From: Nitrospirota bacterium
Lineage (GTDB): Bacteria; Nitrospirota; Thermodesulfovibrionia; UBA6902
NCBI GenBank assembly: GCA_016222905.1
Contig: JACRPZ010000002.1
Location: forward strand, 5,874 to 69,873
Length of the DNA: 64,000 bases
Reading direction: 5' to 3'
Below the pieces are notes generated by a model. The model made no database searches. It worked only from the letters and a program-made list of their open reading frames with translations, and had not been told where the DNA came from. Shown piece by piece: positions 8,777-18,555 of this stretch. The position numbers and the translations under genes are program-made. Numbering within the stretch: position 1 is the first letter of the stretch; every line of letters begins with the position of its first letter.

Positions 8777-9043
8777 ATGGTTAAAACCATATCCGCAATC
8801 AAGGCGCGTCAGAAGCTTGGACAGGTAATGAATGAGGTCTCTCTTAGGGAAGATGAATACATTGTTGAGAGGGCGGGCAAGCCGCTTGTTGCAATTATAC
8901 CGATTGAGCAATATATGAGCATCAAAAAAGACCGCTCTGATTTCTTTGGTATGGTCAGCGAGTTACAGAGATCATCTGATGCTGAAAATATTGAAACTGA
9001 CATTGAAGAGGCTGTTAAACACCACAGAAGGCTGAAGAAGTGA
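8777..9043 (+). CDS. Phd/YefM-family type II antitoxin.
   Basis: 88 aa; 'MVKTISAIKARQKLGQVMNEVSLREDEYIVERAGKPLVAIIPIEQY' is the characteristic Phd/YefM N-terminal fold signature. Strong RBS (taggagg) upstream. Overlaps the downstream PIN gene by 4 nt. Confidence 0.8.
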   Translation: MVKTISAIKARQKLGQVMNEVSLREDEYIVERAGKPLVAIIPIEQYMSIKKDRSDFFGMVSELQRSSDAENIETDIEEAVKHHRRLKK

Positions 9044-9468
9044 TTCACATTGTCATTGATGCGAATCTTTTTGTGAGCGCCGTACTGAAGCCTGACTCCA
9101 GACCGGCTGAGATAATCTCCCTTGTCCGTGATGATAAGATAAAGCTGTTGATGTCTGAAGATATTGAGAATGAGATCAGGGCGGTTTTGCTATATCCAAA
9201 GATCGCCCGAAGGCATAAAAAAAACAAAGAGTATATTGATACTTTTTTCAATAAATTAAGATCAGCGGCAATATTTGTGATGCCTAAAGAAAGGCTTTCT
9301 GTGGTAAAGGATGACCCAAGTGACAATAAATATCTTGAGTGCGCAGTGGCCGGGAATGCCCAGTATATACTCACCGGAGACAGTCATCTCAAAGAGATAG
9401 CCGTCTATAAAGGCATAAGGGTAATTACTGCTGCTGATTTCCTTGCAATTATAAATAGGCAAAAATGA
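9040..9468 (+). CDS. PIN-domain toxin (VapC-like; 'putative toxin-antitoxin system toxin component, PIN family').
   Basis: 142 aa; 'IVIDANLFVSAVL' at the N-terminus, plus conserved acidic positions (D8, E.., 'LTGDSHL') typical of the TIGR00305-type PIN toxin. Translationally coupled to the Phd gene. Confidence 0.75.
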   Translation: MIHIVIDANLFVSAVLKPDSRPAEIISLVRDDKIKLLMSEDIENEIRAVLLYPKIARRHKKNKEYIDTFFNKLRSAAIFVMPKERLSVVKDDPSDNKYLECAVAGNAQYILTGDSHLKEIAVYKGIRVITAADFLAIINRQK

Positions 9469-9516
9469 GTGATGGAATATAGGTAGAGCAAGCCAATACC
9501 CGCTGTAATTTGAGAC

Positions 9517-15130: not shown

Positions 15131-16597
15131 TCATGCCCAAAACGGCACATATTTTGAATATTTTTTTGACATGTGGTCTTCGTATGACTTAATAAGTCCT
15201 TTGGCAATGGTTTCTTTAATGATGCGTGATGCGATGGCGCTGTTTCTTTCCTCTATTCCAAAGCGTTCCCGTAAACTAGCGTTTGTCATAACTTCTCGTT
15301 TGACGTGCTTTAGACAAGAATGCAGGTAACATGCTCTGATCCTATCTTCTTTCGACATGTCCTTTAATGGCTTATGTGAGAATAAAACGGCACTCGTATG
15401 CTCATCGGTTACTTCAAAGGATGGAGCAGGCAATTGGTAAAATTCAGTTTGAAAAACAACTTTGTCCACGCCGCTGCCGCGTTCTTCGCACACCCCGACT
15501 CTTCTCATAAATGACGCTAGTGCTTCATTTCTGGATTTAGGCGGACTATCAAGAAAACGTTCGGTTTTAACGAGAGGCACGCCAGGGTTGGTAATCTCCA
15601 TGCGATCCGAGAATATTTCAACCATAGGGCCTGTACCACGGATGAAAAAATCTTGATGAATGAGGGCATTTGCCACAAGTTCACGAACTGCTATTTCAGG
15701 ATACATCGGCACTTTCTTGCGTAATGCTTTCTCGATAACTTCATTGACAGGCAAAAGGTTGTTGATAAAACCGATTAATCCTTCGAACCCGGATGCATAA
15801 CCTCTTGTCCCGACCTGCTCCCGAAGCGTTTCGTGTCGACTATTGTCTTTATATACTATTACTCGCGCAGCTTTGCGTTTCAGATGTTTAAAATCATCCA
15901 GCCGCTTGGCGAACAGTATCGCGCCCAAATTTGTAATATTCCATCCTCCAGCAGAACAGACCGAAATCATATCATCATTCAACAGCCTCTGCAGAATACC
16001 GCTTCGATCCTCTGGCAACCCAAGACCGAGCAAATCAAAGTAGGAGGGATAATCAAGAAGTTTCAGGACATCTTCATCAGATATATGTTCGGTTGTTGGT
16101 AAATCCTCAAAAGGAATCTGATCGAAAATTCGCCAAAGCTCTCTCTCTTTTTCGGGAAAGTCTTTCAGTCTTTTTTTGTAGGAACCGATCCTGATAAACT
16201 CATGCCCCTGAAACTGCACCGGCTTGTTCGATGCCCGTGCTATTTCAAGCAACACAACAGGAACAGAATTTACATCAAATTCATAAAAGTGGAAATGTAT
16301 CCGTGGAGAAAGAAGTCTCAATAGCCAATTTTCCAGTTCTTCGTTGCCTTTCTTCAGCGCACCTGGCTTAAATGTCGTGCCGGTAATATCGCACGTATCG
16401 TTTTGAACACCCCATACTAAATAAGCCGATGCTTTGCCTGATAGAGCTGCTGAATTACTTAGAGCAGAAATGTATTCCCCGATTTCCTGTGGATCTTCAT
16501 AATTCAATTTAAATTCTACCCATTCAGTTTCTTTAGGTAGGGTACACAGTTCCCTTAGAAGACCTCTCAGATACTCTGTTGTCCGATCGACGGTCAT
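15131..16597 (-). CDS. AlbA_2 (divergent AAA/Schlafen-like) plus HATPase_c_4 domain protein (often mis-annotated 'RecG-like'), nested between mod and res.
   Basis: N-terminal 'ETEWVEFKLNY...ISALSNSAALSGKASAYLVWGV' (AlbA_2 signature). C-terminal 'ELVANALIHQDF...GTGPMVEIFSDRMEITNPG' (HATPase_c_4). Its start overlaps the mod stop (ATGA). Confidence 0.7.
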   Translation of the reverse strand: MTVDRTTEYLRGLLRELCTLPKETEWVEFKLNYEDPQEIGEYISALSNSAALSGKASAYLVWGVQNDTCDITGTTFKPGALKKGNEELENWLLRLLSPRIHFHFYEFDVNSVPVVLLEIARASNKPVQFQGHEFIRIGSYKKRLKDFPEKERELWRIFDQIPFEDLPTTEHISDEDVLKLLDYPSYFDLLGLGLPEDRSGILQRLLNDDMISVCSAGGWNITNLGAILFAKRLDDFKHLKRKAARVIVYKDNSRHETLREQVGTRGYASGFEGLIGFINNLLPVNEVIEKALRKKVPMYPEIAVRELVANALIHQDFFIRGTGPMVEIFSDRMEITNPGVPLVKTERFLDSPPKSRNEALASFMRRVGVCEERGSGVDKVVFQTEFYQLPAPSFEVTDEHTSAVLFSHKPLKDMSKEDRIRACYLHSCLKHVKREVMTNASLRERFGIEERNSAIASRIIKETIAKGLIKSYEDHMSKKYSKYVPFWA

Positions 16598-18555
16598 ATG
16601 GTTTTAAAATCAACCCCTGCATCGCGCATCTGCAGTACAGTATTGGTTTTAAGTTGATCGTTGCCTGTGAACAGGCTATCAAGGGTGATGACCTTTTGCG
16701 GTTTGTCGGCGATGATTTGCTTTATCAGTTTTTCATTCAGTGCGTCTAAGGCAATGATGAGTTCGTTATTGTTGATGCTGTAATAACCGATAGCCTCTTT
16801 GCTTTTGCTTAGTGGGATATGCTGGACAGAACTGGTAAGTTCGTAACCTGCCTTGAGCATCAGTTCATACAGCATATTTTGCTTCTCGGCTCCGGGACGG
16901 ATGGGATCGGTGAAAGCGTCTAACTGCTCTACTAATTTTTCAGCGCTGTCTATTTCAGCGCCTCTCCAGATTTTGAAACTGGATGATGAAAGCTTGAAGA
17001 CCTTGAAGCCTAAATCCAGCTTGTTATCATTGCTGTATTTTTTTGTCATTCCCGCAGTCTGTAAGCGGGAATCCAGTTCCTTATCCTTAAAAAGACCTTC
17101 TGGATTCCCGTTTTCACGGGAATGACCATCTACGGTATTTCCCTGAATTTTATTAATCACCCTGCGGATGCGTTCCTTCCCTATATCGGCTATGGTTTTG
17201 TAACCTGCCTTGTATGCTTCGCTGTTTTCATCACAAGGTTCAGGCATTTGCACTAAAATAAATTTACGATTGCAGCCGTCTTCTTTGTTGAGTTCTAAAA
17301 CGGCATGGGCTGTGGTGGCAGAACCGCCGAAAAAATCTAGAATAATATCATGTTGATTATTTGATGATCCTTGTTCTAATACTTGCTGCAAAAGTTCTTT
17401 GGGTTTAGGAAAATCAAAATATTCTTTTTCATCAAATAACGTTCTTAGTTCTCTCGTTCCTTGAGTATTAAATACTGTTTCAAGTATCGTTGAAAACCCG
17501 GTGAAATCACTCTCCAAATCATTTAAGAATTTCTTTCTGCGAGGTCTTCCATCTTGTTTAGATGGGAATAAGATTTCATTGTTCTTAATTAATTCCTTCA
17601 TCCGTTTCGGTTCATACCGCCATCCCGTTGGAGGGCATTTGTATATTATTCCTGTTTTAGGGTCTTCAAGATCGTAATGAAGATTTGGACGTTGGTCTTG
17701 TGTTGCTAAGCCTGTCATATCTGCGCTCATCCAATTTCCGCGTGAATCATTATCGGGATTGGAATACTTGGTTAAATCTTTTTCGGCCCCTCTTATTAAT
17801 CCCCTATCTGTCTTGCGATAACATAAAAGATATTCATGATCAACCGATGCTCCATTTTTAGAGCGGCTATCCACATTCTGTCGCCTTTTCCAAATAAAGC
17901 ACGCCACAAAATTCTCCTCCCCAAATATCTCATTCATCACCATCCGAAGGTTATGAACCTCATTATCATCAATGTGAACGAAGATAACGCCGTCATCACG
18001 CAGGAGATTTTTTGCAAGAAACAAGCGGGGATACATCATACTGAGCCAGTTGCTGTGATAGTGGCCACTGTCTTTGCTGTTCTTGCGGAACAGACCTTCT
18101 TTCATCAGAAAGCCTTCTTCGTCCTTATCGCCGATGCGCTTCAGGTAATCCTCTTTCTTCTCGCTGAATCTGTCGGGGTAAATAAAGCTGTCACTTCCTG
18201 TATTGTATGGCGGGTCTATGCAAACTACTTTGACTTTACCGTAATATGCTTTCTGAAAAACCTTCAGCACTTCCAGATTTTCGCCTTCGATAAAGAGGTT
18301 TTCCGTTGTGTCAAAGTTAACGGATTCTTCCGGCGCGGGTTTCAATGTGGCTGTGGTAGGCTGCTGCAGAACTCTAAAGGCATCGCTCTTGCCAGCCCAA
18401 TTCAATACATAGCGTTCATTGACAAAATTGATGTCATCGCCAAAAGCAGCTTTCAGTTTTTCCCAATCCAGTTGGTTCTCTGCAAAGAGTTCGGGGAAAA
18501 GCTCTTTCAGCTTCTGCAGTTTGTTCTGCTTAATATCTTTTGACTCTCCGTCCAT
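16594..18555 (-). CDS. mod: Type III restriction-modification methyltransferase, Mod subunit (N6-adenine, beta class).
   Basis: 653 aa; 'VVCIDPPYNTGSDSFIYPDRF' (motif IV DPPY) and a downstream SAM-binding region. First gene of the minus-strand mod-X-res operon. Confidence 0.85.
   Translation of the reverse strand: MDGESKDIKQNKLQKLKELFPELFAENQLDWEKLKAAFGDDINFVNERYVLNWAGKSDAFRVLQQPTTATLKPAPEESVNFDTTENLFIEGENLEVLKVFQKAYYGKVKVVCIDPPYNTGSDSFIYPDRFSEKKEDYLKRIGDKDEEGFLMKEGLFRKNSKDSGHYHSNWLSMMYPRLFLAKNLLRDDGVIFVHIDDNEVHNLRMVMNEIFGEENFVACFIWKRRQNVDSRSKNGASVDHEYLLCYRKTDRGLIRGAEKDLTKYSNPDNDSRGNWMSADMTGLATQDQRPNLHYDLEDPKTGIIYKCPPTGWRYEPKRMKELIKNNEILFPSKQDGRPRRKKFLNDLESDFTGFSTILETVFNTQGTRELRTLFDEKEYFDFPKPKELLQQVLEQGSSNNQHDIILDFFGGSATTAHAVLELNKEDGCNRKFILVQMPEPCDENSEAYKAGYKTIADIGKERIRRVINKIQGNTVDGHSRENGNPEGLFKDKELDSRLQTAGMTKKYSNDNKLDLGFKVFKLSSSSFKIWRGAEIDSAEKLVEQLDAFTDPIRPGAEKQNMLYELMLKAGYELTSSVQHIPLSKSKEAIGYYSINNNELIIALDALNEKLIKQIIADKPQKVITLDSLFTGNDQLKTNTVLQMRDAGVDFKTI

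Follow-up and report, generated by a model that had tools for sequence, protein, structure and literature searches.

Introduction

More than half of the defense-linked Schlafen proteins of prokaryotes are tied to restriction-modification (R-M) or other nuclease systems, and their control has been named explicitly as an open question (Weickert et al. 2026, PMC13462974). In the same work, Schlafen-ATPase proteins, with or without a DNA-binding domain ("Cluster 7"), were found to be tightly linked to R-M, their mechanism of activation being stated as unknown. A preprint on Schlafen-Argonaute fusions (SLFN-pAgo; bioRxiv 10.64898/2026.05.29.728809) named the combination of Schlafen (SLFN) and GHKL domains the "Schlatpase" supradomain, counted it in 58.6% of 103,533 prokaryotic Schlafen proteins, frequently accompanied by a helix-turn-helix (HTH) at the C-terminus, and described stand-alone or HsdS-fused copies in Type I operons as well as ATP-dependent tetramerization and tRNA cleavage by the Argonaute fusion. 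Proteins of the type pSlfn-HisKinase-HTH make up 19.2% of prokaryotic Schlafens (pSlfns), with 69.6% near defense genes (Perez Taboada et al. 2026, PMC13056530), and tRNA or RNA endonuclease activity and ATP-dependent oligomerization are known only for SLFN-pAgo, the CRISPR-associated Schlafen (Cash), and pSlfn5. Here we describe a gene of this kind nested between mod and res of a Type III R-M operon in a 64-kb stretch of the Nitrospirota contig JACRPZ010000002.1 (hereafter the window).

An original prediction made from the letters of the window had placed a Schlafen-like ATPase inside a Type III system, as a possible abortive-infection, sensor, or regulatory component. This idea was right in kind, although the R-M association of Schlafen-ATPase proteins has been in print since 2026, and the Type III embedding is a minor variant of it. 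Beyond that association, we found that the gene is followed by a pair of direct-repeat boxes in helical phase, the sequence of which co-varies with a few residues of the C-terminal winged helix of the protein; neither the box element, nor its phasing, nor the co-variation was found in the literature searched on prokaryotic Schlafens. We lean slightly toward reading the locus as a horizontally acquired mod-Schlatpase-HTH-res operon, in which the nested protein would dock on the boxes and serve as an R-M-coupled Schlafen tRNase. The apparent code between boxes and winged helix is the most useful new lead.

A Type III operon with a nested Schlafen-ATPase gene

Domain calls across the window were made with Pfam, PADLOC, and NCBIfam. 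The operon reads mod first, then res, on the same strand and with one gene between them (Table 1), as in Type III systems. Mod matches methyltransferase models specific to Type III, while Res combines a superfamily 2 helicase/ATPase part with a C-terminal endonuclease domain of the PD-(D/E)xK type (RE_endonuc, residues 771–870), and both subunits are full length (653 and 879 aa, vs 657 and 888 aa in close homologs). Res is 82%–86% identical to Res in two related loci, L081 and L083, and among relatives Res and the nested protein are 82%–91% identical, with the middle, target-recognition part of Mod variable. Mod is only 51%–63% identical overall to its counterparts in L081 and L083–L088, but 92% identical over its last 40–62 residues. 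The pattern in Mod looks like shuffling of the target-recognition domain in an otherwise conserved operon.

The start of the nested gene overlaps the stop of mod by 4 nt (ATGA), as the original prediction had it, and between the nested gene and res lies a spacer of 153 nt. No terminator beyond chance was detected between mod and res. Two sigma-70-like matches at positions 15026–15077 lie on the plus strand, antisense to the operon, and face into the Schlafen gene at its 3′ end; the total of such matches in the region is no more than expected by chance.

The nested protein consists of a Schlafen/AlbA_2 nuclease domain (PF04326, E = 1e-18), a middle domain, a GHKL ATPase (HATPase_c_4, PF13749, E = 8e-23), and a C-terminal winged helix. 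Across 27 homologs, E23-TEWV-E28-F-K30 and S44-ALS-N48 are invariant, a residue pattern in agreement with the nuclease motif, E-x4-(D/E)-x-K, and SAFAN box published for Schlafens, and so are the GHKL ATP-binding motifs E306/N310 and the lid G374-S-G376. No Pfam HTH model matched the protein. The winged helix was recognized in an AlphaFold2 (AF2) model, where residues 416–485 form three helices and a beta-hairpin (block-mean predicted local distance difference test [pLDDT] about 69–89); the model, with a pLDDT of 69 overall and good N- and C-terminal domains, was used for domain-level statements only. Foldseek matches comprised the Protein Data Bank (PDB) entries 3LMM and 2KYY, the N-domains of SLFN14 and SLFN11, and the ATP-binding domains of histidine kinases and PDK (GHKL). 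With the Schlafen motif, GHKL ATPase, C-terminal HTH, and R-M linkage all present, the gene almost certainly belongs to the Schlatpase-HTH (pSlfn-HisKinase-HTH) family. It has thousands of homologs, the best 120 of which share 67%–91% identity at nearly equal length. These 120 are spread over Nitrospirota, Proteobacteria, Planctomycetota, Desulfobacterota, Verrucomicrobiota, and Bacillota, and archaeal (Methanothrix) copies were added by the survey described below. This phyletic spread is compatible with horizontal transfer under strong purifying selection.

Phased direct repeats downstream of the nested gene

Two boxes occupy the spacer between the nested gene and res, box 1 starting 9 nt past the stop of the former and box 2 ending 18 nt before the ATG of the latter. 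The distance from box 1 to box 2 is 109 nt, or about 10 × 11, and the box pattern matches only twice in 64 kb against 0.11 matches expected. In close relatives, the boxes are conserved and the spacer between them has diverged. A central, weaker site corresponds to a semi-conserved block of columns in an alignment of 38 loci, and in the family at large the preferred positions of TTGA sites in the spacer are 34 or 44 nt ahead of box 2.

The element is a property of the family. A relaxed pattern, NNTTGA-Y-N4-NNTTGA, describing two direct half-sites 11 bp apart with the repeat unit NNTTGAYGG.., is found in 80 of 88 loci within 260 nt past the stop, its density being 6.3 per kb there and 0.029 per kb elsewhere in these loci, and the few stray matches are mostly displaced copies of box 2 that still lie at the start of hsdR. 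In 40 of 46 loci, the two boxes have the same variable half-site dinucleotide (AT, AA, AC, AG, GG, GC, GT, and others), by which we class the boxes; under shuffling, the mean was 12.9 and the maximum 22. Spacing between the boxes falls into classes of about 77, 88–89, 99, 110, and 221 nt; 38 of 45 loci have a spacing that departs from a multiple of 11 by no more than 1 (p = 2e-15). Where the cassette is nested in an R-M operon, the end of box 2 lies at −19 to +20 nt relative to where the following R-M gene starts (20 of 21 loci). Two loci, L054 and L059 (box 2 at 2521 and 7723, respectively), carry about 420–510 nt inserted between the boxes, including an 81-codon open reading frame (ORF) in L059; box 2 is still about 30 nt upstream of hsdR in both despite the insert. 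Other cargo genes in the same operons have no boxes, which are confined to the 3′ side of the Schlatpase cassette.

Considered as RNA, the element gave no Rfam match, no consensus structure, and no covarying pairs. Because a consensus fold and an Rfam match are both lacking, a DNA-level site is the likelier interpretation, and direct repeats of one turn that are held in helical phase over 7–20 turns indicate candidate DNA sites of an oligomeric protein. The nested gene evidently travels as a cassette, composed of the ORF, its start fused to the preceding gene by ATGA, and a 3′ element of about 130 bp that holds both boxes.

Box class and winged-helix residues

Every column of the protein alignment was scored for association with box class, with correction for entropy. 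The ten best columns (478, 453, 480, 448, 477, 481, 459, 471, 482, and 456) all lie in the C-terminal winged helix, and 19 of the 25 best fall within residues 411–488, which account for 78 of 488 columns (Fisher p = 8e-12). Residue 453 is located in the third (recognition) helix beside the invariant S457-R458, and residues 476–482 in the wing. A G at half-site position 1 pairs with R481 and V476, a purine at position 2 with K or R at 453, and a T at position 2 with S453, a pattern that is chemically plausible. On a tree built from residues 1–410, the box classes are polyphyletic and interleaved; for instance, L032 (AA boxes; K453, R478, M480) and L037 (AC boxes; S453, P478, L480) are 96% identical over those residues. 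The focus of the signal on the recognition helix and wing favors direct readout, and the winged helix probably binds the boxes.

Genomic context of the family

We surveyed 80 genome loci with homologs 63%–82% identical to the nested protein, clustering the neighboring genes, naming the clusters by Pfam, and re-scoring them with hidden Markov models; 37 of the loci counted as well flanked, having 3 kb or more to either side. Type I R-M genes were nearby in 44 of the 80 loci (21 of the 37 well-flanked ones), with the homolog nested between same-strand Type I genes in 25, and Type III genes in five, plus one mixed locus (three of 37), leaving 30 loci (13 of 37) with neither. A same-strand gene precedes the homolog in 58 loci, and in 32 of these its stop and the start of the homolog share 4 nt. 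Type I operons typically run hsdM-(cargo)-hsdS-X-hsdR, X being the homolog, and other cargo in them includes Fic, GmrSD, YhcG, and FRG. The closest relatives of the window copy (91% and 86% identity) occupy the same mod-X-res position. Taken together, the nested arrangement is a trait of the family, mostly in Type I and occasionally in Type III operons.

The original prediction that the gene is no mere passenger is thus borne out, with 50 of 80 loci linked to R-M, and the gene is not equally common outside defense contexts: about 35% of the well-flanked loci lack an R-M neighbor, comparable to a published 30% (PMC13056530). R-M is nonetheless not obligatory for the family, since about a third of the homologs have no recognizable R-M neighbor. 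At least some of these solo copies are decayed R-M loci. The copy in L001 (82% identical) sits among housekeeping genes with a 3′ remnant of mod upstream of it, at about 9925–10000, and both boxes downstream; because the remnant is retained, we take L001 to be a decayed Type III locus. Both boxes without a downstream R-M gene were also found in, for example, L021, L040, and L067.

The slot itself varies among relatives. In L081 (86% identical; positions 3262–5715), and also in L082, two extra genes (417 and 343 aa), neither of which matches a Pfam or PADLOC model, sit between mod and res, and L081 further holds remnants of the res N-terminus (5555–5659) and, just upstream of the Schlafen gene, of the mod 3′ tail. 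Because of these extra genes and remnants, the slot seems recombinationally active, and it appears to gather cargo by recombination. An LmuA-like gene follows res in L081. Two divergent AlbA_2/HATPase_c_4 genes share one R-M locus in L008, L024, and L029, the second copy being about 35% identical. Such pairs would fit a need for box/winged-helix classes that do not cross-react.

The same repeats in phage contigs

The exact 20-nt AT-class box was found in at least 120 IMG/VR viral contigs (L097–L216), representing 104 independent contexts with GC contents of 26%–62%. The AC-class box occurs in 47 viral contigs (L223–L269), in arrays of up to seven or more tandem 11-mers, and the AA class in three (L220–L222), while two composition-matched permuted controls gave one and two viral matches. 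The viral stretches with a box encode no domain of the nested protein, and the neighbors of the boxes are heterogeneous phage genes with no common theme. These arrays could be what the winged helix senses, or decoys, or sites of a broader class of binders.

In the most far-reaching case, the winged helix would be a programmable reader of 11-bp iterons, its classes (AT, AA, AC, AG, GG, GC, and GT) set by residues 453 and 476–481; the protein would sense, or be titrated by, phage DNA arrays, its own phased boxes beside the restriction gene would be a silencing dock that binds the tRNase to the R-M operon, and the whole would form a DNA-motif-gated abortive-infection switch. Such a switch would explain why R-M operons carry Schlafens, although at present we regard it as improbable.

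Proposed mechanism and alternatives

Under the reading we favor, the nested protein would be translated together with Mod through translational coupling and could oligomerize via its GHKL domain, by analogy with the Argonaute fusion RzAgo. Its winged helix would then dock on the two in-phase boxes between its own gene and res, which would couple the protein physically, regulatorily, or both to expression of the restriction subunit and could throttle read-through into res. On a cue from infection or from failure of restriction, the Schlafen-type tRNA endonuclease would act as a second-line layer of the abortive type. The parts of this scheme differ in strength. We put the role of the nested protein as a tRNase effector at about an even chance, whereas its control of res is possible but somewhat doubtful.

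Several observations weigh against the scheme. Two pSlfn-HisKinase fusions failed to protect against the coliphages tried when expressed alone (PMC13056530). The AF2 model is of low quality over the GHKL region, in which oligomerization would be seated, and loci with neither type of R-M gene have heterogeneous neighbors, mostly housekeeping, with a few other defense-like genes among them. The C-terminal codons physically adjoin the boxes, so that co-inheritance of both as one recombination block contributes to the co-variation. The gene past box 2 is hsdS, hsdM, or mod in several loci and not always R. Because the box classes are present in many phage contigs that encode no homolog, another binder of the boxes may exist. 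Lastly, the coding strand of the spacer yields no predicted sigma-70-like promoter, and any control of res would for this reason need a roadblock or a loop.

The nested protein could instead be a dedicated controller of restriction, a DNA-binding regulator that, like a C-protein, sets the timing or level of transcription of the downstream R gene and protects a new host until methylation is established, with a Schlafen domain that binds nucleic acid and is no toxin. In most nested loci, the gene does lie between the M/S and R genes with box 2 abutting the downstream start, the two operators stand 8–10 turns apart in phase as in classical repression loops, and the operator/winged-helix classes resemble orthogonal groups of C-proteins and C-boxes. 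A pure regulator, however, would have no use for the nuclease motif (E-x4-E-x-K) and GHKL motifs that are invariant across phyla, and solo copies such as L001, L021, L040, and L067 keep both boxes with no R-M gene left to control; given also the promoterless spacer and the varying identity of the gene past box 2, we consider a controller unlikely. The frequency of solo copies speaks for an autonomous defense or addiction cassette that is independent of Mod and Res, for which R-M operons would be permissive, co-transferred slots and the boxes would serve autoregulation only. The unrelated genes and remnants in the L081 slot, the assorted cargo of the Type I operons, and identities of 63%–91% across phyla, which point to frequent horizontal transfer, are likewise in keeping with independence. 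Against it stands the strong preference for one precise position, downstream of hsdS, hsdM, or mod (with the −4 overlap) and upstream of R, the start of which adjoins box 2, together with the mod remnant that marks solo L001 as a decayed R-M locus and the lack of defense from stand-alone HisKinase-type pSlfns, and we judge independence to be quite unlikely.

The boxes might, on the other hand, not be operators of the nested protein at all but recombination or mobility sites, an RNA-level element, or sites of another factor shared with phages. Their abundance in viral contigs, compared with one or two in the permuted controls and with no Schlatpase domain nearby, speaks for such a role, as do the sharp edges of the cassette, with ATGA at its start and box 2 at its end. 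Against it, the boxes are confined to the 3′ side of the cassette and missing from other cargo genes of the same operons, and neither RNA structure nor covariation was found. The helical phasing, and the way co-varying residues cluster in the recognition helix and wing, are also difficult to account for in this way, and we regard a use of the boxes unconnected to the nested protein as very improbable. Docking of an R-M-coupled Schlafen effector on its own boxes therefore remains the reading we prefer.

The imported block and its native surroundings

The seven ORFs of the original prediction stand with their coordinates and domain assignments (Table 1). Its grouping of these genes into one defense island holds in part: the Type III R-M system is indeed an imported block, but the Lon-related protease is native and the Phd/PIN pair is separate.

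Table 1. Features of the locus in window coordinates
Feature	Position	Strand	Support
Phd/YefM-type antitoxin gene, 88 aa	8777..9043	+	Pfam PF02604 E = 1.3e-8; TIGR01552
PIN-domain toxin gene, 142 aa, GTG start	9040..9468	+	PIN_3 E = 1e-20; TIGR00305; 4-nt overlap with phd
Lon-related protease gene, 808 aa	9581..12007	+	LonC_helical, AAA_32, LonB LID, Lon_C
Native intergenic DNA downstream of lon	12008..12106		Alignment with L093/L094
rsmA/ksgA 5′ fragment, 94-codon ORF	12053..12337	-	RrnaAD/TIGR00755 profile positions 4-80 of 256
Type III res, 879 aa	12338..14977	-	PADLOC REase_III E = 2e-302; ResIII, DEAD, RE_endonuc
Box 2, ATTTGATGGTTATTTGA	14996..15012	-	Two direct ATTTGA half-sites, 11 bp apart
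Central weaker site, ATAACTCTATGATAAC	15047..15062	-	11-bp periodic, ..TTGA/TGA core, inside spacer
Box 1, ATTTGACGGTCATTTGA	15105..15121	-	17 nt; between nested gene and box 2
Nested Schlatpase-HTH gene, 488 aa	15131..16597	-	AlbA_2 and HATPase_c_4 (Pfam); C-terminal winged helix (AF2)
Type III mod, 653 aa	16594..18555	-	PADLOC MTase_III PDLC03634 E = 7e-196; N6_N4_Mtase PF01555
Region upstream of mod	18556..18783		Ends at right insertion junction

On the left, alignment to L093 and L094 runs from the lon stop to about 12104–12106 and then breaks, placing the junction at about 12106/12107; on the right (about 18783/18784), the L093 alignment is conserved only from AAAGATTATTCT on, where the native rfaF/gmhB leader resumes. 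Because native homology stops and restarts at these points, the acquired DNA is a block of about 6.7 kb (about 12107–18783) that comprises rsmA′ (codons 1–77), res, the nested gene, and mod with its leader. Neither direct nor inverted repeats were found at its borders, and the window contained no tRNA genes and no integrase in this search.

The Lon-like protein has hundreds of homologs at 71%–96% identity, of which those named are almost all from Nitrospirota (89.7% identity for L093, 77% for L095). Downstream of lon and on the same strand, L093 and L095 carry a rfaF/gmhB fusion, a second heptosyltransferase (glycosyltransferase family 9, GT9), and a GT2 gene; the same lipopolysaccharide genes follow in the window at 18821–23483, with 83%, 79%, and 79% identity to L093, respectively. 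The first of them (18821–20401, plus strand) fuses heptosyltransferase II (RfaF) to a GmhB-type heptose bisphosphate phosphatase in 526 aa, a fusion kept in L093 and L095. Since homologs are found throughout Nitrospirota and the synteny with rfaF/gmhB is shared, the Lon-like protease is evidently a native, vertically inherited gene rather than the defense cargo it had been taken for. A defense-associated Lon-like protease, such as BrxL of BREX, was also considered and rejected: the gene gave no BrxL or other PADLOC defense match above noise, only a marginal mad8 match (E = 0.0017), and it is conserved in Nitrospirota beside rfaF.

The ksgA remnant, too, had been misread, as the sign of a housekeeping gene broken at this site. 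Only codons 1–77 (nt 12337–12107) of the 94-codon ORF are RsmA; its ATG directly abuts the TAA stop of res, and its last 17 codons are native lon-downstream sequence read through. It cannot be a full-length RsmA/KsgA 16S rRNA dimethyltransferase of about 260 aa, as the C-terminal RNA-binding part is missing and only a stretch of the N-terminal profile is covered. No second piece or 3′ part of ksgA was found anywhere in the window, and the relatives have no ksgA between lon and rfaF; a native ksgA split by a toxin-antitoxin-lon block is ruled out, since the 3′ part is missing and lon and the DNA downstream of it are native. Because the relatives lack ksgA here and the ORF tail after codon 77 is native, we infer that the fragment came from the donor locus as a scar, carried in by the R-M block. 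It is 79% identical to aa 1–77 of the ksgA of L091; in L091 and L092, ksgA sits elsewhere, after an addA-like UvrD/PDDEXK gene. The L091 gene, otherwise complete, reads as two ORFs of 88 and 176 aa, probably by a frameshift, and the L092 gene is truncated by a gap, so that the cases checked do not amount to a conserved family of short RrnaAD mini-genes. The match of the fragment to PADLOC mad2 reflects generic methyltransferase similarity and does not indicate a MADS system. The identical fragment has been deposited as a hypothetical protein from a Nitrospirae metagenome-assembled genome, and short contigs of the same organism repeat the order res-ksgA′-lon-PIN-phd.

The Phd/PIN genes have the layout of a Type II toxin-antitoxin pair, in which a short antitoxin gene precedes, and overlaps, the gene of a PIN (VapC-like) toxin. 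The pair is absent from the lon-syntenic relatives L093–L096 and is a separate, small insertion upstream of lon, outside the R-M block. In relatives, a XerC/D-like tyrosine recombinase gene lies directly upstream of lon (7038–7916 in L093, 6768–7643 in L095), beside a mraZ-rsmH-ftsI cluster. None of the proteins encoded upstream of lon in relatives, including the XerC-like integrase, has a match in the window, which carries the Phd/PIN pair and surface-protein genes there instead; synteny is broken on that side as well. Farther upstream, at 5207–8476 on the plus strand, an ORF of 1089 aa without a match in Pfam, NCBIfam, or PADLOC comes after a series of small genes, CarboxypepD_reg-like or unannotated, and a gene for an fn3/PhoD_N-like surface protein. 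Synteny with relatives is thus worth checking before a defense island is called, as both the native Lon and the imported rsmA stub are misread otherwise.

Comparison with known systems

The PrrC anticodon nuclease offers a conceptual model for an RNA-cleaving effector nested in an R-M operon. PrrC is a suicide effector encoded inside the EcoprrI Type Ic R-M locus, a latent tRNase that is released when restriction is countered; it joins an ABC-type ATPase to a HEPN-like nuclease, is regulated by protein-protein masking, and is not known to have an HTH or cognate DNA boxes. The nested protein is unrelated to PrrC and is no anticodon nuclease of that type, as only AlbA_2 and HATPase_c_4 were found in it and no PrrC/RloC-type PADLOC or Pfam model matched. 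The C-proteins of Type II R-M systems, Xre-type HTH dimers of about 80 aa that bind inverted repeats upstream of their own gene, resemble it in being DNA-binding proteins encoded in R-M operons, with operators before the R gene and diversified specificity classes. Here, in contrast, a 488-aa enzyme-HTH fusion is accompanied by putative sites of direct 11-bp repeats downstream of its own gene, in place of palindromic C-boxes upstream, and it is not a C-protein.

SLFN-pAgo (RzAgo) and Cash share the Schlafen nuclease motif with the nested protein, and RzAgo also the same SLFN+GHKL supradomain; tetramerization that depends on GHKL, with cleavage of tRNA, has been reported for SLFN-pAgo and Cash. 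RzAgo itself tetramerizes with ATP, and its nucleic-acid-sensing module triggers tRNA cleavage. The sensors differ, being an Argonaute core in RzAgo and a Csx15 domain that binds cyclic tetraadenylate (cA4) in Cash, while the nested protein has a winged helix that is a putative sequence-specific binder of double-stranded DNA. The only solved structures with this architecture or its N-domain are 3LMM (DIP2311 of Corynebacterium diphtheriae) and 2KYY (Foldseek E = 5e-14 and 2e-4, respectively; profile match to 3LMM E = 4e-8; about 15%–20% identity), both structural-genomics entries with no assigned function.

The published R-M-linked Schlafen-ATPases have the same AlbA_2 domain with E-x4-(D/E)-x-K, GHKL ATPase, and C-terminal HTH; they are just as tightly linked to R-M, and a similar share of them lies near defense genes. 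Among the published examples that we found, those of the SLFN-pAgo preprint are of Type I and those of Weickert et al. of an R-M type that is not specified, and the window copy represents the minority mod-X-res arrangement of Type III, for which it adds a clean, recently inserted example. To the features already described in that family, the family comparison adds a testable handle, namely a travelling cis element of phased 11-bp repeats, a few winged-helix residues that track its sequence, and a box 2 at the start of the restriction gene, and these box features give a sequence rule by which Schlatpase cassettes can be annotated.

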